Position numbers and translations under genes: made by a program. Positions 45,262-57,025 of a DNA stretch of 64,000 bases are shown here, one piece after another. The stretch lies in NCBI GenBank assembly GCA_011364985.1, contig RDOC01000005.1:1-64000 (forward strand), in the 5' to 3' direction. Origin of the DNA: Candidatus Thorarchaeota archaeon. Lineage in GTDB: Archaea > Asgardarchaeota > Thorarchaeia > Thorarchaeales > Thorarchaeaceae. The stretch's first letter is position 1; each line of letters begins with the position of its first letter. The notes beneath the pieces were generated by a model. That model did no database searches and was not told the DNA's origin. It saw only the letters and a list, made by a program, of their open reading frames with translations.

Positions 45262-46113
45262 ATGACACAGATGAGAATTCGAAATATGAATACAAACGAC
45301 CTTGGCTTTGCTATAAGCCTAACAGAACAGGAGAAATGGGGTAGTATTAGAGAGGATTTTCAGGAACTCCTGCTTTTCGACCCAAATGGATCCTTTATTG
45401 CAGAAATGAATGGCGAACCAATCGGAATGGTATGCGCAATTTCCTATGGGTCCTTTGGATTCATTGGAAACCTGATAGTCCGATCAGAATATCGAAAGAG
45501 CGGCTATGGAACAACTCTGATGAGTCATGCCATCGCGTATCTCAAAGGGAAAGGAACAGATACTGTAATGCTTGATGCAGTACAGAAAGCAGTACCTTTA
45601 TACAAGAAGCTAGGTTTCAAAGAGATGTGCAACTCACTTAGGTACGAGGGACGCGTTGAGCCAGAGACTTCCAGCAATTCTCGGGATATGGAAGACAAGG
45701 ATATGATGCACATTCTAGGGATTGACAGGAAGCACTTCGGAGCCAATAGATTTCTTTTCCTTGGGAGCAGTTTGTCCAGGGACCCAGATTTGGCCCGTGT
45801 TATTGAAGTGGGAGGCAGAATAGTTGGTTACATAATGGGAAGTAAGCGGCATGGGTTTGTTAGGCTGGCACCATGGATAATCTCGGAGTGCCCTGAGCTT
45901 GCCAATGAGATGCTACGCGATTTTGCAGTACGTGTAGAAGGAAAGCAGATCAAGCTAGGAGTTCTCGAATCTAATACTCATGCTGTAAAAGTCATGAAGG
46001 CCCACGCGTTCTATCAGAAGAGCTATTCTGTTCGAATGGTCCTTGGCGCTTTGCCGAGAGATATGCAACCGTCAAACGCAGTATATGCAATAGGGTCCGC
46101 TATGCGTGGATGA
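45262..46113 (+). CDS. GNAT N-acetyltransferase (two-domain)
   Basis: LIVRSEYRKSGYG; AVPLYKKLGF. Confidence 0.9.
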   Translation: MTQMRIRNMNTNDLGFAISLTEQEKWGSIREDFQELLLFDPNGSFIAEMNGEPIGMVCAISYGSFGFIGNLIVRSEYRKSGYGTTLMSHAIAYLKGKGTDTVMLDAVQKAVPLYKKLGFKEMCNSLRYEGRVEPETSSNSRDMEDKDMMHILGIDRKHFGANRFLFLGSSLSRDPDLARVIEVGGRIVGYIMGSKRHGFVRLAPWIISECPELANEMLRDFAVRVEGKQIKLGVLESNTHAVKVMKAHAFYQKSYSVRMVLGALPRDMQPSNAVYAIGSAMRG

Positions 46114-47284
46114 CCATTTTCTTTCGTCGTGACCTCATTCTCTCAATCCTAGCCCCTAAGTTAACCTCACTAATACGATTCGCCACAAATGGTGACGCAG
46201 CTATTAGGGCAACAGCAAGGAGCCAGACTACGGAGATATCGATTGTTGCATGGCTATAGGTTCCCTGAACAAACATCTCAATCATAGTGCGATATGCATT
46301 GGAGAAGGGCACATACTCGTTGAGAACTGTGAAGCCCATTCCGGTCAAAGATAGTGGTGCGATCCCACCTCCAGTGATCCAGTAAAAGAGAGCAACCAGT
46401 GCGCAAAGTGGAACAACATACACCGAGTTTCTTGCCATCGACCCTAATATTGTTCCCACGCCTGCAGTAAAGATAGCCAATGGTAGCGTCATCGCAAGGA
46501 ACGTGAGTATGTCACCTCTAGGTAGAACACCATATAATCCCCATCCCAGAAACAACACCGCTGGAATGGAAATGTAGCTTAGAACTGCTCCACTCAACAT
46601 TTTTCCAGCATAGATCGCATATGGAGACCGATTGGAGAGTGTGAGTTCCTCGATTGTGCTCTGTTCATACTCTTGTGCTGTCGCTGATGCTGCAAGGAAC
46701 ATTCCTCCAAAAGATATGCCGTATACCATAACTGTCCATGCCATATACGCCAACCTTGGAGGAGTATACTCATTCAACAGTTCTACATTGAAATCGACTT
46801 TCGCATCCTCAGTGAGATAGGTCTGATAGAAGATGTCAAGCTTCCTGATGACAGGCATACGTAGGTTCTTTGTCATGTCCTCGTGGGCATTGTTAACCAT
46901 AATGTGGATACTAGTTGATTGGTTATTTTGAAGAGCTTCTTCAAATCCTTCAGGGATCGTAATCACAAGCAGAATCTCACCAGTTTCAAATAGGCGGTTC
47001 GCAGTATCGCTATCCAGCTCAACTAGCCTCAAGCTGGGAGGAATTGGATCATGCGTTCCCAGAATCTCAATCAATCCATTTGTGTAGAATTCGGGATTCT
47101 GTTCCTCAACCACAAGAGCAGTATCAACACCCGGTCCGGCATATACTCCGCCCATTAGCAGCACGAAAGCGGAGTAGTATAGTAGAGGAAAGAGTATGAC
47201 AAATCCCAGCCGCTCCTTGTTTCTGAGCCAAGTCTTGATCTCTTTCACAAATGATGCACGAAGTACTCTGGACCGATCACTCAT
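46100..47284 (-). CDS. ABC-2 type permease
   Basis: TM + extracytoplasmic domain + 5 TM; EYEQSTIEEL; GKML. Confidence 0.9.
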   Translation of the reverse strand: MSDRSRVLRASFVKEIKTWLRNKERLGFVILFPLLYYSAFVLLMGGVYAGPGVDTALVVEEQNPEFYTNGLIEILGTHDPIPPSLRLVELDSDTANRLFETGEILLVITIPEGFEEALQNNQSTSIHIMVNNAHEDMTKNLRMPVIRKLDIFYQTYLTEDAKVDFNVELLNEYTPPRLAYMAWTVMVYGISFGGMFLAASATAQEYEQSTIEELTLSNRSPYAIYAGKMLSGAVLSYISIPAVLFLGWGLYGVLPRGDILTFLAMTLPLAIFTAGVGTILGSMARNSVYVVPLCALVALFYWITGGGIAPLSLTGMGFTVLNEYVPFSNAYRTMIEMFVQGTYSHATIDISVVWLLAVALIAASPFVANRISEVNLGARIERMRSRRKKMVIHA

Positions 47285-48414
47285 GAACGCTCAACCTCCT
47301 GTGCCATTAGCTTCGTGGAAAGAAGTGTGAACACTATCCACATTGTCAGTAGAGCAACCATGCCAAATAGAAGCCCAGACATAGTATCATAGAAGAACAC
47401 ACGAGCCCACATGCTTATAGAATGAGTCGTTGGAAGCATCATCACCAGAGCTCTGAGCTCTCTTGGCATCAAACCAATTGGGGCAAGGCCACCTCCAGCA
47501 AGAAAACAAACAACGCTGAATAGAACCGAGAAAAGGATTGCAGTTTCCCTCTTTTTAGACCGAAGACCAATAATATCGCCTATAGGTACAAGGACCAAGA
47601 TAGAGAGCAAGAGGATTAGTCCAAGTATTACCGGATTGCCAGCAGGAAGTGTTCCGGTGCCAAGCAGGATAACTGGCACAGTAATCAAGAGCACAAAAAG
47701 AGAGCGGGGAATTGCAGCAATCGTGTGGGCAACCACTATGGCAATTCTACTCGTTGGCGAGTTCAATGTATCATAAACTGCCTTTGTTTCAAAATCAGAT
47801 GCGGTAGCAAGGGCTTGCCCAGTGACAGAGCAGACAATGACAGATAGAACTACTGCTACTGCATACATATAGGCGAGGTTTGACGGAGTTACGTCTAGAT
47901 TCAGAGTTTCATTGAGAGCAACCCGTGCATCAGATTGATCGTATTCTGGATAGATTGCACCCTGATTATAGAGAAGAACTGCAGCCTCAATTCTATGCAC
48001 ATAATTCTTGACAACATCATCATTCAGATTGACTATGTAGATGACAACTACCGCTTTAATGCCCGCAGTTATGTTTACTCCAAACCCTTCAGGGATTAGA
48101 ACATATGCAATAAGTTCGCCGCTTTGAAATAAGTCCATTGCAGTCGCAGAATCATACCGGCTCATTTTGAACCAAGTATGATTCGTAGTAGAAACCATAT
48201 TCTCTAGGATGAGGGCCATATCTTCTGCTTGTGTTGATGAGTCTTCGACAACAAGTCCACAGACAAAGGATTCACCTCCTCCAACTTGAGCCCACATGAT
48301 TGCATAGACCAATGCGAGCACAAATGGAACTATCAGGCTGGGGGCAACGAATCTTGGGTCTCTTTTTGCTTGCTTCAGGTCCTTCCTTACTATGGCGGCA
48401 ATCTCCCTTAGCAA
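47281..48414 (-). CDS. ABC-2 type permease
   Basis: KDLKQAKRDPR; paralog of the adjacent permease. Confidence 0.9.
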   Translation of the reverse strand: MLREIAAIVRKDLKQAKRDPRFVAPSLIVPFVLALVYAIMWAQVGGGESFVCGLVVEDSSTQAEDMALILENMVSTTNHTWFKMSRYDSATAMDLFQSGELIAYVLIPEGFGVNITAGIKAVVVIYIVNLNDDVVKNYVHRIEAAVLLYNQGAIYPEYDQSDARVALNETLNLDVTPSNLAYMYAVAVVLSVIVCSVTGQALATASDFETKAVYDTLNSPTSRIAIVVAHTIAAIPRSLFVLLITVPVILLGTGTLPAGNPVILGLILLLSILVLVPIGDIIGLRSKKRETAILFSVLFSVVCFLAGGGLAPIGLMPRELRALVMMLPTTHSISMWARVFFYDTMSGLLFGMVALLTMWIVFTLLSTKLMAQEVERS

Positions 48415-48416
48415 CT

Positions 48417-49379
48417 CTAATCCCTCAACTTTGATCCTGTTATCGTCAGAAACACATCACCCAGAGAGGGCTCTCTCAGGGAGGCCTGCTTAACCCTCAG
48501 GTTGCGCTTTGTGAGTCGTTCGATTACTATTGGAAGATCAGAATGACCTGACTGACTCCGAATCCATGCCGTTCGGGGGCCTCCATCAAGAGGCGCACTT
48601 ACTTTCTCAACCTCCAGTTTTAGCTCCCCAGCGAGCCACTCGGCACCAAGAGCAGAGTCCATGTTCTCGACTAGGACCTCAATGAGATACTCACCCACAT
48701 ATTCGCGCTTCAGGTCGTTTGGTGTGCCTTCAGCCACCAGTTTCCCATTATCAATTATTATTACTCGATCGGCTAATGCTTCGCTCTCATCCATGTAATT
48801 TGTACAAAAAAGAACGGTACGCCCTTCATCCCGCATCTTCCGGACCTGATTCCAAATCAGATTTCGGCTTTGAACATCGACACCAAGAGACATCTCGTCA
48901 AGAATGACAAGCTTGGAGTCATGTAAAATCGACCGGACTAGAGCAAGACGACGCTTCATACCTCCGGAATAGGTCTTCACCAAGTCATCTTTACGATTGG
49001 TAAGTCCAGCGATCTCAAGCATTGATGCAACACGTGAATCAACTTCGGTTTCAGGCACTCCATATAGGTGTGCATGGTATACCAGAGATTCTTGTGCGGT
49101 GAGGTCTTGATATAATGCGGTTTCCTGTGGCATGAAGCCAATCAACTGACGAATCTTGGAGAGGTTCTTTGATACTTCGTAACTATGAATCTTGACACTT
49201 CCAGAACTGGGCTTGAGAATTCCTGTAATCAGTTTGACAGTTGTTGATTTTCCTGCACCATTGGGACCAAGGAGGCCAACTATTTCACCCTGCTCAACTG
49301 AGAATGAGAGGTCATCCAAGGCTTTTCTTTGCTCACCATAGATATGGGTAAGGTTTGAAATTTCTATCATCGAAGGCAA
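48417..49379 (-). CDS. ABC-2 ATPase (DrrA-like)
   Basis: GPNGAGKST, YSGGMKRR, EPSLGDVFLTITG. Confidence 0.95.
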   Translation of the reverse strand: MPSMIEISNLTHIYGEQRKALDDLSFSVEQGEIVGLLGPNGAGKSTTVKLITGILKPSSGSVKIHSYEVSKNLSKIRQLIGFMPQETALYQDLTAQESLVYHAHLYGVPETEVDSRVASMLEIAGLTNRKDDLVKTYSGGMKRRLALVRSILHDSKLVILDEMSLGVDVQSRNLIWNQVRKMRDEGRTVLFCTNYMDESEALADRVIIIDNGKLVAEGTPNDLKREYVGEYLIEVLVENMDSALGAEWLAGELKLEVEKVSAPLDGGPRTAWIRSQSGHSDLPIVIERLTKRNLRVKQASLREPSLGDVFLTITGSKLRD

Positions 49380-50673: not shown

Positions 50674-50772
50674 GCAGTTATAGGATAACTTATCCTAGTA
50701 CCTGCTGAGAGTAAGTTCATATTTGAAAGAGGCCATTCTTTCTTGCTGCTCCTGATTGGAGGAAAAAGAGGA

Positions 50773-51585
50773 TTGAAGAAACCGCTTCTCAAGGTTCTTA
50801 GGTGTCCAAAATGCCAGAGGAGCCTATTCATATCTGAGAATAATGCGAATCTAAATGAAATTCACGAAACGACCTTAGCGTGCGAGAAGGGTCACATTTG
50901 GAAGGTAGAGGATGGAATTCCTTCTCTTGTGTTTCCGTCCGTTAGTTCCAAGGATGCAAAATGGATTGCCCAATATGAAGAAATGGCCGAGAGCTACGAT
51001 GATCTTGTCAAGCAGTACGATGATTGGCTTGGCATAGATATGATGAAAGAACGAGAGAGAATTGTTCGTTTCGTTCCGATAGAGGCACCTGTAAAGATAC
51101 TGGATGTAAGCATTGGAACTGCAGCCACCTTTATTGCTTTGTACAATGCATTCCAAGGAAAACAGATGGAACGTTTCAATCTTCATGGGCTCGATCTCTC
51201 TCTTGGCATGCTCAAGGTGGCGAAACAGAAGATAGAGAAAAGAAGCTTGGACATCAGTCTCGTTCACGGGAACGTATTCAATATTCCATACAAGAACAAC
51301 TCGTTCAACATCGTCTATCATAGTGGGGGTATCAATACATTCTCAGATATTGGCCTAGCATTGAACGAGATGCTCAGAGTTGTACGGTCCGGTGGAATTG
51401 TTGTAGTTGTTGATGAGGGGTTGTCTCCAGACATGCGTGAAAGCGAGAAAGGGAAGGAGATTATAAGGACCAATAGTTTATTTGCAGCAAGGCCACCCAT
51501 CGCATACTTGCCTGAGAAGGTAAAGGATGTTGAAATGAACTATATCATGAATGGGACGTTCTATGAGGTTGTATTCAGAAAATAG
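50773..51585 (+). CDS. Trm112-like zinc ribbon fused to a class I SAM methyltransferase
   Basis: LRCPKC..LACEKGH.W.VEDGIP; ILDVSIGT, GLDLSLGML, EMLRVVRSGG; GAGGA RBS before TTG 50773. Confidence 0.88.
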   Translation: MKKPLLKVLRCPKCQRSLFISENNANLNEIHETTLACEKGHIWKVEDGIPSLVFPSVSSKDAKWIAQYEEMAESYDDLVKQYDDWLGIDMMKERERIVRFVPIEAPVKILDVSIGTAATFIALYNAFQGKQMERFNLHGLDLSLGMLKVAKQKIEKRSLDISLVHGNVFNIPYKNNSFNIVYHSGGINTFSDIGLALNEMLRVVRSGGIVVVVDEGLSPDMRESEKGKEIIRTNSLFAARPPIAYLPEKVKDVEMNYIMNGTFYEVVFRK

Positions 51586-51615
51586 ATGAGTCTGTTAATA
51601 GAAAATAGTCTGTGC

Positions 51616-51726
51616 TCATGTGGCTTCCCACAAGAGCACTTGTTCGCATGTGGCACAACGATGATCGGCTTTCTCGTTGCGACTGGGATGATGAGTAGTT
51701 CGAATGAATTCCTTTTGGTCATTCAT
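51616..51726 (-). CDS. Micropeptide P4 (36 aa), possibly a frameshifted fourth array copy
   Basis: GAGGT-n10-ATG; MNDQKEFIRTTHHPSRNEKADHRCATCEQVLLWEAT*; motif-like HMRTSALVGSHM in an adjacent frame. Confidence 0.4.
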   Translation of the reverse strand: MNDQKEFIRTTHHPSRNEKADHRCATCEQVLLWEAT

Positions 51727-51732
51727 AGCGGA

Positions 51733-51825
51733 CTATACCTCTTTGTAAAGATATGAATGTGCAAGCGCCTTGGTCGAAACATGCTGCTTGACACGTCGAT
51801 CATATTCTTTCTTAACTGGAAACAT
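51733..51825 (-). CDS. Micropeptide P3 (30 aa)
   Basis: GGAGGT-n7-ATG; MFPVKKEYDRRVKQHVSTKALAHSYLYKEV*. Confidence 0.7.
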   Translation of the reverse strand: MFPVKKEYDRRVKQHVSTKALAHSYLYKEV

Positions 51826-51830
51826 CGAGC

Positions 51831-51938
51831 TTACCTCCTGTATGCAAGCGCGTACCCAATAGCATCGGTCGAAACAACCTTTGCCATTTTCGAATTCCTT
51901 GTTCCACTTCTGAATAGGGCATTCTTCTCAATTGCCAT
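51831..51938 (-). CDS. Micropeptide P2 (35 aa)
   Basis: GAGGT-n8-ATG; MAIEKNALFRSGTRNSKMAKVVSTDAIGYALAYRR*. Confidence 0.7.
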   Translation of the reverse strand: MAIEKNALFRSGTRNSKMAKVVSTDAIGYALAYRR

Positions 51939-51940
51939 TT

Positions 51941-52048
51941 TTACTTACCTCGTGATGCGTATGAGTAGTAGAGTGCCTCATTCCAGTGATAGTTCGAAGT
52001 TGATGCATATTGGAGTTCTTCACTTCGATTACTTGTTTCTTGGACCAA
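51941..52048 (-). CDS. Micropeptide P1 (35 aa)
   Basis: GGTGA-n6-TTG; MVQETSNRSEELQYASTSNYHWNEALYYSYASRGK*. Confidence 0.65.
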   Translation of the reverse strand: MVQETSNRSEELQYASTSNYHWNEALYYSYASRGK

Positions 52049-52109
52049 TCTTGCTCACCAATCCTTGTGTGAACCAGTTGAGTTCGCATGTTTCCATACA
52101 AAGTCTACA

Positions 52110-52204
52110 TATATAAAGGTTTGTAAACCAAACCATTTGTAACTAAAACCATTTTAATACGTACTTTTTTTGTCTTACATGGTTCCTACGATAAACCTTT
52201 TAAA
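52110..52204. promoter_or_regulatory. Divergent promoters with 16-bp tandem operator repeats
   Basis: TTTATATA (minus, 52117-52110); TTTGTAAACCAAACCA / TTTGTAACTAAAACCA at 52120-52151; inverted TTACATGGTT at 52175-52184; TTTTAAA (plus) ending 52203. Confidence 0.7.
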
Positions 52205-52254
52205 ATGGATTGCGCATAAAATACAAAGAACAAAGAACGAATTGGGATGATAGA

Positions 52255-52992
52255 TTGACGAAATATGAAGTGACTGACGCCCTTGAGGGAATTGAACTCA
52301 CGGAAGAGGGCAAACAGGAAATGCGCGACATCGTGTTCATTCACGATAAAGAACGTGGGGAAATCATAGACGACCAAGTAAGACATTTCATCATCCAAAT
52401 CCTGAAGCGCGGAATTGACGATATGCTGACGACTGAAACCAAGGACCCAAGTACAGGGGGAACTATTAGGATTCAGAGAGAAATAAAGCGATATGCAATG
52501 TCGGTTGTGGAGATTGTCAGAATGGCAAAGAGGTATAACGACATTGACAATGTGACCAAAAATCAAGTTTATCACCACCTGCCAAAACTCATTGAAGCGG
52601 GCTTTGTAGTCAAATATGGAACCGTTGTAACTGGAAAAAGAACAACGGATTACTACCGAAGAACGGCAAAGGGCTTTGTTCTTGCTACGAGCCAATCGAC
52701 TATGAATGAAGCGTTAATGAAGAGGAAAGCAGAAAGTCATGTCGAGAAGTTCTCAATCTTTGATATTACTCTTTCAGAGGCCCAGAAGAAGGAACTAGTG
52801 GGCCTGCTGTTTGAAGCAGCCAAGATAGAGAAGAAAGGCGTATCGGAAATCGCCAAGCTCGTGAAGGGGGACGTCGCCGATAAGGAGATACTATCGATGT
52901 ACGAGGATTTGGTTATGCTATATGCCCTTGGTGATGAGAACTGGTTACAAATTCATAGAAGGATACGGGAAATTCTCCTTCCAAACAAATAA
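52255..52992 (+). CDS. ArsR-like wHTH regulator with C-terminal helical domain
   Basis: DQVRHFIIQIL..MSVVEIV..TKNQVYHHLPKLIEAGFV..TDYYRRTAKGF; GGGATGA before TTG 52255. Confidence 0.88.
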   Translation: MTKYEVTDALEGIELTEEGKQEMRDIVFIHDKERGEIIDDQVRHFIIQILKRGIDDMLTTETKDPSTGGTIRIQREIKRYAMSVVEIVRMAKRYNDIDNVTKNQVYHHLPKLIEAGFVVKYGTVVTGKRTTDYYRRTAKGFVLATSQSTMNEALMKRKAESHVEKFSIFDITLSEAQKKELVGLLFEAAKIEKKGVSEIAKLVKGDVADKEILSMYEDLVMLYALGDENWLQIHRRIREILLPNK

Positions 52993-53364: not shown

Positions 53365-53742
53365 CTAAAGCCGCCTCATTAGTTGAATTGCAGTCTTCGC
53401 CAAATCAACAATGGTGAGCTCTGGTACGGAGTCAGGAGTGGCCCAAGCAATTGCCCAAGTGTCATCTTCTACAAGAGCCATTAGGAGATGACCTTGGTCC
53501 TTGTCCGCAGTTGCTATGTACGATTCGTCATCGGCAGCTACCAATCTGTAGGTCACACCACCTACCGAAATAGAGGAGGCTCCTGACGATGATGCAGTGG
53601 CTAAGGATTCTGTGGCATCGACAAGGTTATTCCAGTTTCTGGTAACCCAAATGATCTCACCGTTCTTCATAATCGCGAAAGCCTGAATCTTCGGATTATG
53701 GGAATACAGAAGTTTCCACTCATTATCGATAGTCATGTCCAT
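53365..53742 (-). CDS. Profilin-like protein (divergent paralog)
   Basis: IQAFAIMKNGEIIWVTRNW..SISVGGVTY..QGHLLMA..AIAWATPD; collinear with its neighbour. Confidence 0.7.
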   Translation of the reverse strand: MDMTIDNEWKLLYSHNPKIQAFAIMKNGEIIWVTRNWNNLVDATESLATASSSGASSISVGGVTYRLVAADDESYIATADKDQGHLLMALVEDDTWAIAWATPDSVPELTIVDLAKTAIQLMRRL

Positions 53743-53847
53743 TTTGATTTCACCAGAATGCAGCTATATTCTTGGACACCTAGAACTCACAAGATGGGTC
53801 GGACGGATTGCATTGGCCAGATAGACAGCCCATCTCAGACTGCCTTC

Positions 53848-54228
53848 TTAGATTTTGCCTTTCAGTGATTTTGCAGCACGATCAACATCGACATAGATTC
53901 CGTCTGGAGCAGCTTCTGCCGCAGCCCAAGCAACAACGAACTTGTCGCCCTCGATTTTGGCTAAAACCAAAATGCCGCTTCCTTGAACATTTCTGGCTAC
54001 GAGACTATCGGGAGTTGTCCGAATTGTGCTGTATTTCACCTGATTCTGCATGACACTTGCAGCACCACTGCCAACTGCCTTGCCAAGCTGAGCTGCATCG
54101 GCTGTGAGGTCCCAGTTGTTTGACTGCCAAAGGACCTGGCCGGAGGTAGTGATTACTCCAAAGGCTTGAACCATGTTTCCGCTGTCATTGTAGGCTTGTG
54201 TGTATGCATCCATAACTGGATCTGACAA
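53848..54228 (-). CDS. Asgard profilin
   Basis: AFGVITTSGQVLWQSNNWDL..QNQVKYSTIRTT..VARNVQGSG matches the Asgard profilin pattern (G..I.QT.NW..GIKY...N..GKG). Confidence 0.85.
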   Translation of the reverse strand: MSDPVMDAYTQAYNDSGNMVQAFGVITTSGQVLWQSNNWDLTADAAQLGKAVGSGAASVMQNQVKYSTIRTTPDSLVARNVQGSGILVLAKIEGDKFVVAWAAAEAAPDGIYVDVDRAAKSLKGKI

Positions 54229-54802: not shown

Positions 54803-57025
54803 GTGGACCAGACCCCAAGAACAACGAAAGCACTTCTCTTGGGCATCTTTGGAGCTGGCGCCTTCTATGCTGCACTTGTAGCTTTTCAGGGGAAATGGGA
54901 CGATCCAAGTGTACTTATTGCAATTCTTGTTGAGTGTGGATTGCTCTATGGATCATTGTATAGAAAAGCACCCGAAATCCCTGAAATTCTCACATTCTTA
55001 TTGGCAGCCCTGCTCCTGCCAATCTTCTCAGCTCTTCTCGGAATCCTCACTGAGATCACGATAATGGCGTCAGCTGGACTGATCATCTATCCTGCTGTTA
55101 TGAGCAGGCCAAGATTCCCCTTAACCAAGAGAGCGGTGACTTCTGGAATTATCATTGGTGTAATCATGACTTTCTTGGGGATCTATCTCGCGCTAAAAAT
55201 CGGTGTGGTCTATTTCATCGGAGCTGAGCTACTTGGTGCCTTGCTTCTTGGTGCATATGGCAGATATACTCCAGAGGAGAATACAATTGTTGTTTCCATA
55301 GCAAACAGCTCAGCATACATCTCTGTGGGCGTCCTAGTCGCCTTTCCTGCAATTGCAATCTTCACTCCACCCAGTTACGCAGACGCAGTAATCACATATC
55401 CCTTCATAGTCATCGTCACAGGCCTTAGCGCACTCTTTGGGTTGATTCTCTTGTTTCCATTCAGAGAGCAATTTGAAAAAGATCCATGGCCCCAAGTTGT
55501 TCCTCAAGCTAACTGCATTGTATCCCTCGCTGCAGATCCCAACTCAAAGGAGAATGTAGTTGGAGGAATGGTGACAAGTGCGTCTTGGATGGGGACCACA
55601 CGGTTCTTAGAGAGCATCACAGCCTCAAATCTGTCTTCACTCCCCCAAGCATTGGCACCTATTATCCCTGCAGCAGGAAATGTGCCAAATTGGATTGGAG
55701 TGACGAATTCCCCATTGCTTGCAGGAGTCGGATACTTCGTTGGATGGAAAAGGACACTCACGATAGCCCTCGGCACTCTAGTGACGGTGCTAATCTGGGT
55801 GCTTGTAGAAGGTGCAACACCAATCGAGTACGGGGAACACCTGCATCGTCCCGAGATAATCTACTTGGTTCTAGGAGTCTTCGTGGCAGTCATTCTCAAT
55901 GATATAGTTTCTAGTAGGGCAAAGGACCTGACACCCGAGGAATTTGAGAAGCAGGCAAGAAACCACAAGAATACTCTGAATGGGAAGAGCCAAGAGATGC
56001 ATCTAATCGATAAGCCGCATAAGGCAGAAGAGATTCAGGAGCTACTCCGAGTAAGAACGGAACTCTTCAGCATAGAAGCTCTGATGGAAGAGATCCGATG
56101 GATGGTAAAAGATCCTAGAGGTTACATGAGAAGCAAGAGAGGGAGATTGCCACCTTGGGTCGCTTTCACGTCACTAGCTCTCTTCGTAGTTGTGGGCATA
56201 GTTGTCTTCTCAGCTCTCAGACCTTTTCTGAACATCAGTATTCCGTGGCTATTATTCTTGATTGGAGCACCATTAGCAATGGTCTCGGCCTATTTCACCG
56301 CCAGAGCTATCAGCGAAACGGGTATGCTCGCCGGGTATATCTCAGATATCATTGCCATCCCTGCCATTCTGTTGTTCCGAACGACATTCCAATCGATAAC
56401 GACATTCATGGCGATGCTTGGGGGTCTTCAAGATGCTGCAATAGCCCTGTTAGTGCATCTAAAGCTGGGCAGAATCACTGGAGTGAAGGCGAGAAGCATT
56501 GTGAAGGCAGTTGCAATTGGAATGGCGCTAGGAACGTCGATTGGCTCCATGATAACCTATCTCTTGTACCGAACTTATGGTTTCGGCGGAGCTGAATTCC
56601 CTGCCCCTGTTTCACAGCTGTTCGGTTTTCTGGTCACTAGTATCACACATATTGGCAATTTCCAACTACCAGGAGCGGACCAGCTGCCCGGTATGCCCAT
56701 CTACCTCGCATTTGCATATCTCATGACTTTCGCTATAATTGGATATATTGCTGGAAGAGAACTCAATCGAAGAGGGTTTAGCGCAATTAGCTTGGCTGTG
56801 GGCTTGCTGATACCGCCAACTACATCAGTCACATTGCTAATTGGTGGAGCCTTGCACTACTGGGTCGACAGAAAGAAGAGGGCAGAGGCTCTTAACTCCG
56901 AAGCGATTGCAGCTTGCGAGAAGTCTGTGGAGAAGACGAGCCAAGTCCTGAGTGGAGTTGTAGCTGGAGAGGCTATTGTCACCGTGTTTGTTGTTGTATT
57001 GGCTGCCTTCGCAATGATTATCTAG
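54803..57025 (+). CDS. OPT/YSL-like oligopeptide transporter
   Basis: LTKRAV..YLALKIG, EENTIV, FPAP, SGVVAGEAI. Confidence 0.8.
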   Translation: MDQTPRTTKALLLGIFGAGAFYAALVAFQGKWDDPSVLIAILVECGLLYGSLYRKAPEIPEILTFLLAALLLPIFSALLGILTEITIMASAGLIIYPAVMSRPRFPLTKRAVTSGIIIGVIMTFLGIYLALKIGVVYFIGAELLGALLLGAYGRYTPEENTIVVSIANSSAYISVGVLVAFPAIAIFTPPSYADAVITYPFIVIVTGLSALFGLILLFPFREQFEKDPWPQVVPQANCIVSLAADPNSKENVVGGMVTSASWMGTTRFLESITASNLSSLPQALAPIIPAAGNVPNWIGVTNSPLLAGVGYFVGWKRTLTIALGTLVTVLIWVLVEGATPIEYGEHLHRPEIIYLVLGVFVAVILNDIVSSRAKDLTPEEFEKQARNHKNTLNGKSQEMHLIDKPHKAEEIQELLRVRTELFSIEALMEEIRWMVKDPRGYMRSKRGRLPPWVAFTSLALFVVVGIVVFSALRPFLNISIPWLLFLIGAPLAMVSAYFTARAISETGMLAGYISDIIAIPAILLFRTTFQSITTFMAMLGGLQDAAIALLVHLKLGRITGVKARSIVKAVAIGMALGTSIGSMITYLLYRTYGFGGAEFPAPVSQLFGFLVTSITHIGNFQLPGADQLPGMPIYLAFAYLMTFAIIGYIAGRELNRRGFSAISLAVGLLIPPTTSVTLLIGGALHYWVDRKKRAEALNSEAIAACEKSVEKTSQVLSGVVAGEAIVTVFVVVLAAFAMII

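Follow-up and report, generated by a model that had tools for sequence, protein, structure and literature searches.

A run of very short open reading frames facing a regulatory gene raises the question of whether such frames encode functional peptides and, if so, whether these peptides act together with the regulator. To address this question we examined a locus in the first 64,000 nucleotides of contig RDOC01000005.1 from a Thorarchaeota genome of 1.7 Mb, a stretch that we refer to as the window. A sequence-only reading of this stretch had proposed that 3 back-to-back ORFs with embedded SDs and similar C-termini were paired with a divergent ArsR-like regulator that carries an additional helical domain, and this observation was confirmed. 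The 3 ORFs, here called P1, P2, and P3, are separated by gaps of 2 and 5 nt, their SDs are embedded in the preceding ORF, and their C-termini align without gaps. It was also noted that the array contains a fourth SD-led ORF, P4, located 6 nt downstream of P3, as well as a 3' hairpin with a T-tract and a palindromic operator, none of which had been recognized in that reading (Table 1). In the whole genome, chains of three SD-led ORFs of 24 to 42 amino acids with gaps of less than 10 nt were identified only at this locus, and no such chain was obtained in 5 block shuffles.

Table 1. Features of the peptide array, its surroundings and 2 related loci. Coordinates refer to the window, except in the last 2 rows, where L followed by a number denotes one of the loci used for comparison.
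Coordinates	Strand	Feature	Supporting observations
46100-49379	-	DrrA-like ABC ATPase with 2 permease-like genes	no op1 or op2 site found by PWM scan
50743-51585	+	class I methyltransferase with an N-terminal Cys-rich segment	convergent to the array in many orthologous loci
51597-51639	-	12-bp hairpin spanning the P4 stop codon, followed by a T-tract; probable 3' end of the transcript	83.7% of cells paired (slid controls 23% to 48%); outer 5 pairs recovered by RNAalifold
51616-51726	-	P4, 36-aa ORF of a second family	EVLxWEAT end, median charge -2; dN/dS 0.58; last codons partly fixed by the hairpin
51733-51825	-	P3, 30-aa basic family peptide	family HMM 30.6 bits; dN/dS 0.38, C-terminal part 0.24
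51831-51938	-	P2, 35-aa basic family peptide	family HMM 56.6 bits; dN/dS 0.44 over 12 orthologues
51941-52048	-	P1, 35-aa family peptide, subtype with a less basic N-terminus, TTG start	family HMM 34.9 bits; orthologue in L002 has ATG at the same place behind the same SD; C-terminal dN/dS 0.31 versus L002
52110-52117	-	TATA box of the peptide operon	same position in orthologous loci
52118-52136	-	op1 palindrome (GGTTTG-N5-CAAACC), abutting the TATA box and covering the BRE position; a weaker tandem copy lies just upstream	only strong PWM site in the genome, 31.8 versus 14.9 for the next; exact pattern in 52 of 86 genomes, reversed control 8 hits in total
52179-52205	+	degenerate op1 copy followed by the TATA-like box of the regulator gene; suggests autoregulation	read from the sequence; function inferred
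52255-52992	+	regulator of predicted PH1932 fold (ArsR-like wHTH plus C-terminal helical bundle), 245 aa, TTG start; likely binder of op1	AF2 pLDDT 88.7; 2CWE Z 13.8, 183 aligned, rmsd 5.6; 1ULY E 1e-9; matches in 33 of 36 family genomes, the best hits in 4 of them being weak paralogues
53365-54228	-	2 tandem profilin-like genes and an Lrp/AsnC gene, convergent to the regulator	profilin hit within 1.5 kb of the regulator match in all 27 loci L001-L027; class-wide synteny, no operon link
54803-57025	+	740-aa OPT-family oligopeptide transporter	1.8 kb from the regulator
L061:2238-3959 (genome G000, contig C11)		HTH_45 gene (Sso10a-like, below cut-off) plus a 412-aa bactofilin (PF04519, 35.1 bits, above cut-off)	HTH 82% to 90% and bactofilin 53% to 66% conserved; both also match in Hermodarchaeia and some other Asgard families
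L287:1347-1436		Hermodarchaeia 28-30-aa peptide under op2; also in L272, L273, L275, L277, L280, L294, and L298	mostly ending in Phe-Ala-Cys-Arg-x, followed by a conserved inverted repeat

We next asked whether the peptides are conserved as proteins. The divergent strand of the regulator loci in related genomes carried the same arrays, and a profile built from 38 peptides identified 1 to 12 matches each in 82 of 85 Thorarchaeia genomes (the family genomes), but none in the other 314 Asgard genomes searched. The shared motif is S-T-x-A-[ILV]-x-aromatic-[AS]-Y-x-Y-R. The codons for the conserved Ser, Thr, and Ala residues vary freely at third positions, with an entropy of 1.65 to 1.83 bits compared to 0.2 to 0.45 at second positions, and both Tyr codons are used, so that selection acts on the protein. 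In line with this, the pooled dN/dS values were below 1, ranging from 0.18 for one P1 subtype to 0.69 for the P1 gene in the window against its single close orthologue, although the genes are short and the pairs are not independent. Tests for conserved small ORFs at orthologous loci and for dN/dS below 1 had been suggested beforehand, and both came out in favor of coding. A total of 200 members were 22 to 42 amino acids long, with a median charge of +5, a median GRAVY value of -0.65, and no signal peptide or hydrophobic segment. Variant peptides under the same promoters were found at loci L028-L030, L081, L135, L154, L156, L157, and L180, several of which keep a MALAK-type start while all carry different C-terminal motifs, and the family profile therefore undercounts them.

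It could be argued that the ORFs merely carry SD repeats or RNA structure and that their products are irrelevant. The final Arg codons are indeed mostly AGG or CGG because they form the next SD, and the end of P4 overlaps the hairpin, in which 20 cells changed on both sides, a count that was not reached in any of 500 shuffles, although only 3 pairs carry such changes. Part of the conservation of P4, which has a variable N-terminus and a conserved end, is therefore driven by the RNA, and the array looks like a self-contained transcript. However, the synonymous freedom at the motif positions of P1 to P3 and the dN/dS values of 0.24 to 0.38 in the C-terminal parts of P2 and P3 largely refute this explanation for P2 and P3, and there was no match in Rfam. 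We consider it very unlikely overall, and plausible mainly for P4.

A read-through of TAG that joins P3 and P4 was also considered, since the junction is in frame with a 6-nt gap in 38 of 51 cases and contains TAG in 37 of 51, and since public collections contain P3-Gln-P4 fusions (here P0143, P0147, P0150, P0157, and P0161), probably from gene callers reading TAG as Gln across the junction. This reading was rejected because SD spacing and shared ancestry explain the pattern and other stop codons occur; PylS was not found in this genome, which is 74% complete. Searches of Pfam, NCBIfam, PHROGs, PDB, the ESM Atlas, and Rfam returned no significant match, and a search of 1.84 billion proteins returned 45 hits, all of 29 to 90 amino acids, of which the 14 that were inspected were family members or fusions. 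Three metatranscriptomes from the same study did not cover the locus and provide no evidence on expression either way.

The regulator model, which is of a monomer, matched PH1932 over most of its length, and the named homologues of the protein were mostly from Thorarchaeota. An op1 site was located upstream of 29 of 30 regulator loci, compared to 2.5% of random windows, and a family peptide was present at 25 of the 30 loci, with variant peptides at 3 more, confirming the pairing at the DNA level. The single locus without op1 is that of a paralogous regulator on contig C3 of this genome, which also lacks peptides upstream. Of 30 sampled exact op1 sites in the family, 19 were at regulator loci, whereas 7 headed MFS genes, 3 were located before GNAT genes, and 1 before an ABC ATPase. 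The position over the BRE suggests repression, which is inferred by analogy with CopR of P. furiosus, for which sites upstream of the BRE go with activation and sites blocking TBP/TFB recruitment go with repression (10.1101/2020.08.14.251413).

The genome contains 3 additional arrays, on contigs C4, C15, and C20, located behind a different promoter with a GTCACA-N3-TGTGAC palindrome and further half-sites 13 bp apart, here called op2. There are exactly 4 op2 sites in the genome, the fourth of which heads a bactofilin gene of 412 codons directly behind an HTH_45 gene. The op2 sequence was identified in 70 of 86 family genomes with no control hits, and about 88 to 107 nt upstream of bactofilin in 28 of 28 loci (control 0.5%), with the HTH_45 gene adjacent in 25 of these; HTH_45 is 82% to 90% identical across these loci. 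Some op2 arrays are SD-coupled to a DHA3-type MFS gene, others lead to a second MFS family, and op1 copies are nested inside several op2 arrays. In this genome, the bactofilin and the MFS_1 gene carry no op1.

These findings bear on the suggestion that the peptides are ligands or anti-repressors of the divergent regulator and close a feedback loop, as for PSMs acting on PmtR. The regulator and the peptide family have the same class-restricted range, op1 also heads exporters, as PmtR heads pmt (PMC5080381), and the C-terminal bundles of PH1932-type proteins are thought to hold an effector cavity. However, most arrays in this genome are under op2 rather than under this regulator, and the paralogous regulator on contig C3 has neither op1 nor peptides upstream. 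Prediction of a complex of the regulator dimer with P2 gave an ipSAE of 0.01, which is not evidence either way. Direct binding of a peptide to the regulator remains a hypothesis, and a rather improbable one on present evidence.

In Hermodarchaeia, we identified 27 op2 sites, which head bactofilin (8), an MFS protein 41% to 46% identical to that of the second MFS family in Thorarchaeia (7), a single basic peptide of 28 to 30 amino acids (8, plus one degenerate), and a protein of 190 amino acids (3). The latter, at loci L281, L292, and L295 in one Hermodarchaeia genus, has an N-terminal hydrophobic stretch and no match in NCBIfam. Peptide, MFS, and bactofilin run under op2 there, and the regulator was not found with our query in the 3 genomes of that family sampled, which also speaks against a role as ligand of the regulator. 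The Hermodarchaeia peptide, which is undescribed, resembles the Thorarchaeia family in size, charge, and aromatic C-terminus, but homology was not detectable (under 3 bits; hhalign 0.5%). The possibility of a peptide acting as a mimic of the dimer helix of HTH_45 was rejected (rank 646 of 2,947 frames, hhalign 0.3%).

The coupling to MFS genes raises the possibility that the peptides, or their clipped C-terminal 10 to 13 residues, are exported and act outside the cell as signals or antimicrobials, like multi-peptide leaderless bacteriocins or PSMs. A DHA3-type MFS gene (TIGR00900, E 1e-65, below cut-off) starts a few nt after the last peptide in L087, L095, L126, L140, L143, L153, and L155, overlaps it in L142, and follows the array on contig C15 of this genome. 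The OPT-family transporter near the regulator would be a possible import route if the peptides are exported. On the other hand, the peptides are hydrophilic with a weak helical moment (0.19), no recurrent immunity gene was seen, and this array and many others end in a terminator with no transporter. Furthermore, the family is chromosomal core rather than patchy, and the motif is shared across the class instead of diversifying by kin. SD coupling to an efflux-type pump fits export as well as it fits the interpretation given below. We regard export as the main alternative, and we consider it unlikely rather than excluded.

A role as bulk protectants, similar to SASPs, that bind DNA, RNA, or ribosomes during stress or dormancy would fit the many dispersed paralogous small genes under one promoter type, the strong SDs, the basic Lys/Arg tails, and the Tyr/Arg-rich ends, and the only PDB look-alikes of the N-terminus were ribosomal protein tails, at non-significant E values of 0.3 to 0.5. 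However, there was no significant match to any chromatin or ribosomal family, and this role does not explain the coupling to MFS genes, making it doubtful. Still less probable is that they are RiPP precursors with an alternating aromatic core cross-linked in trans by a radical-SAM enzyme, in the style of dynobactin or triceptides. The aromatic-x-Tyr-x-Tyr pattern and the presence of one SPASM gene in the genome fit this idea, but no radical-SAM, YcaO, P450, or LanM protein was recognized among the 45 largest neighbour clusters of the array and operator loci (read by eye, with 10 checked by Pfam), no operator was found upstream of the SPASM gene, and the second Tyr is replaced in many members; a trans-acting enzyme is not fully excluded, given the incomplete genome. 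The suggested role in proteostasis, through an HbYX end as in proteasome activators, holds for only a minority of peptides: about 30 of the 200 end in x-Tyr-Arg, 106 end in YRR or FRR, and P1 to P3 in the window do not fit, while the final Arg is largely a by-product of the SD. Signalling of the RRNPP or Rgg-SHP type was not supported either, since the regulator model is a wHTH plus a four-helix C-terminal part rather than a TPR-like peptide-binding domain, and the median best 12-residue Kyte-Doolittle mean of 0.55 gives no hydrophobic export segment.

Taken together, the interpretation that regulator and diversified peptides form a module was only partly supported: the peptides are real, paralogous, and conserved, and form a conserved divergent unit with the regulator, but they are not members of a closed regulator-peptide pair, because 3 of the 4 arrays in this genome sit under an operator shared with bactofilin and, in other genomes, MFS genes. 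We suggest, with a probability of about 0.35, that the peptides are the high-dose output of a two-regulator regulon and not its sensor. In this view, the array is one transcript in which ribosomes are handed on through overlapping SDs, and the peptides stay in the cytoplasm and use a basic N-terminal tail plus a conserved 13-residue aromatic C-terminal motif to dock on a conserved protein of the same regulon, either the acidic bactofilin polymer (pI 5.2, net charge -10) or the cytoplasmic face of the MFS pumps, and tune its assembly or activity. It is likely, judging from position, that the PH1932-type protein binds op1 and represses both the array and itself until an effector releases it, and somewhat more probable than not that a second factor, probably the HTH_45 protein, turns on the other arrays through op2 upstream of the BRE. 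What our analyses demonstrate is the coding capacity, the array layout, and 2 conserved palindromes at fixed promoter positions with their target sets, whereas transcription, the protein that binds each operator (assigned by linkage), any dimer or effector cavity of the regulator, the sign of control, and the task of the peptides, including docking, export, or antimicrobial activity, are inferred.

A core gene family of the class, found at several long-standing syntenic loci with one shared motif, fits a conserved target better than an arms race, and high gene dosage, the lack of an export segment, and the lack of a linked maturase fit a cytoplasmic effector. However, co-regulation is not contact, no partner has been demonstrated, and bactofilin homologues exist in Asgard families where the peptide profile finds nothing. 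The fold of the motif is also unsettled, since AF2 gives a low-confidence helix (pLDDT 66) while the alternation of I, aromatic, Y, and Y gives a higher beta-strand moment. A more far-reaching but unlikely possibility is that an old Asgard regulon, kept in Thorarchaeia and Hermodarchaeia, co-induces a bactofilin filament, an MFS pump, and micro-proteins that bind and control that filament, and that Thorarchaeia expanded these into SD-chained arrays and put them under a second, PH1932-type regulator. If true, this would be a class of cytoskeleton-regulating micropeptides in relatives of the eukaryotic ancestor.

We found no description of such a system in the papers searched, which did not include subscription journals, in agreement with the sequence-only reading, which knew of no archaeal system of this form. 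The analysis exposes a class-wide, multi-copy gene family that annotation mostly misses or mis-fuses in Asgard archaea, with 2 candidate operator-regulator pairs. Regulons in uncultured Asgard lineages are hardly mapped, and this one ties tiny proteins to a bactofilin and MFS pumps in 2 classes. Since every part is small (operators of 19 and 28 bp, regulators of 118 and 245 amino acids, and peptides of about 30 amino acids), the function is accessible in vitro without culturing the organism.

Among known systems, the bactofilins and halofilins (PMC11459167) are related to the op2 target, which is a PF04519 beta-helix protein but has 412 amino acids; a term search of the halofilin paper found one mention of Asgard homologues and no passage on small proteins or operons. 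The small acid-soluble spore proteins of Firmicutes are likewise encoded by dispersed paralogous small genes under one promoter type and are cytoplasmic and present at high dose, but there is no homology, and the genes studied here are chained in SD-coupled arrays and co-regulated with bactofilin and MFS pumps. In layout, the array resembles the multi-peptide leaderless bacteriocins aureocin A70, garvicin KS, and cereucins, with 3 to 4 tandem paralogous cationic peptides of 26 to 34 amino acids, no leader, and an HTH regulator nearby (PMC6131525); an exporter gene, here of the MFS type, is coupled to the peptides in one locus class but not at this locus. However, the GRAVY values are +0.4 to +0.7 for A70 and garvicin KS, whereas the Thorarchaeia peptides are hydrophilic products of chromosomal core genes at several loci, with MFS rather than ABC genes and no sequence match. 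The PSMalpha, PmtR, and Pmt system of Staphylococcus aureus also combines a small-peptide operon with a repressor that controls exporters, but PSMs are amphipathic and exported by an ABC system, while the regulator studied here appears to control the peptide genes themselves. Finally, PH1932 of Pyrococcus horikoshii (PDB 1ULY/2CWE), an archaeal ArsR-type regulator, shares the N-terminal wHTH and C-terminal helical bundle with 22% identity, whereas the Thorarchaeia protein, found essentially only in Thorarchaeia among the Asgard genomes searched, has an extra N-terminal arm and a long beta-hairpin insertion (245 versus 191 amino acids), as well as a candidate operator and peptide regulon.
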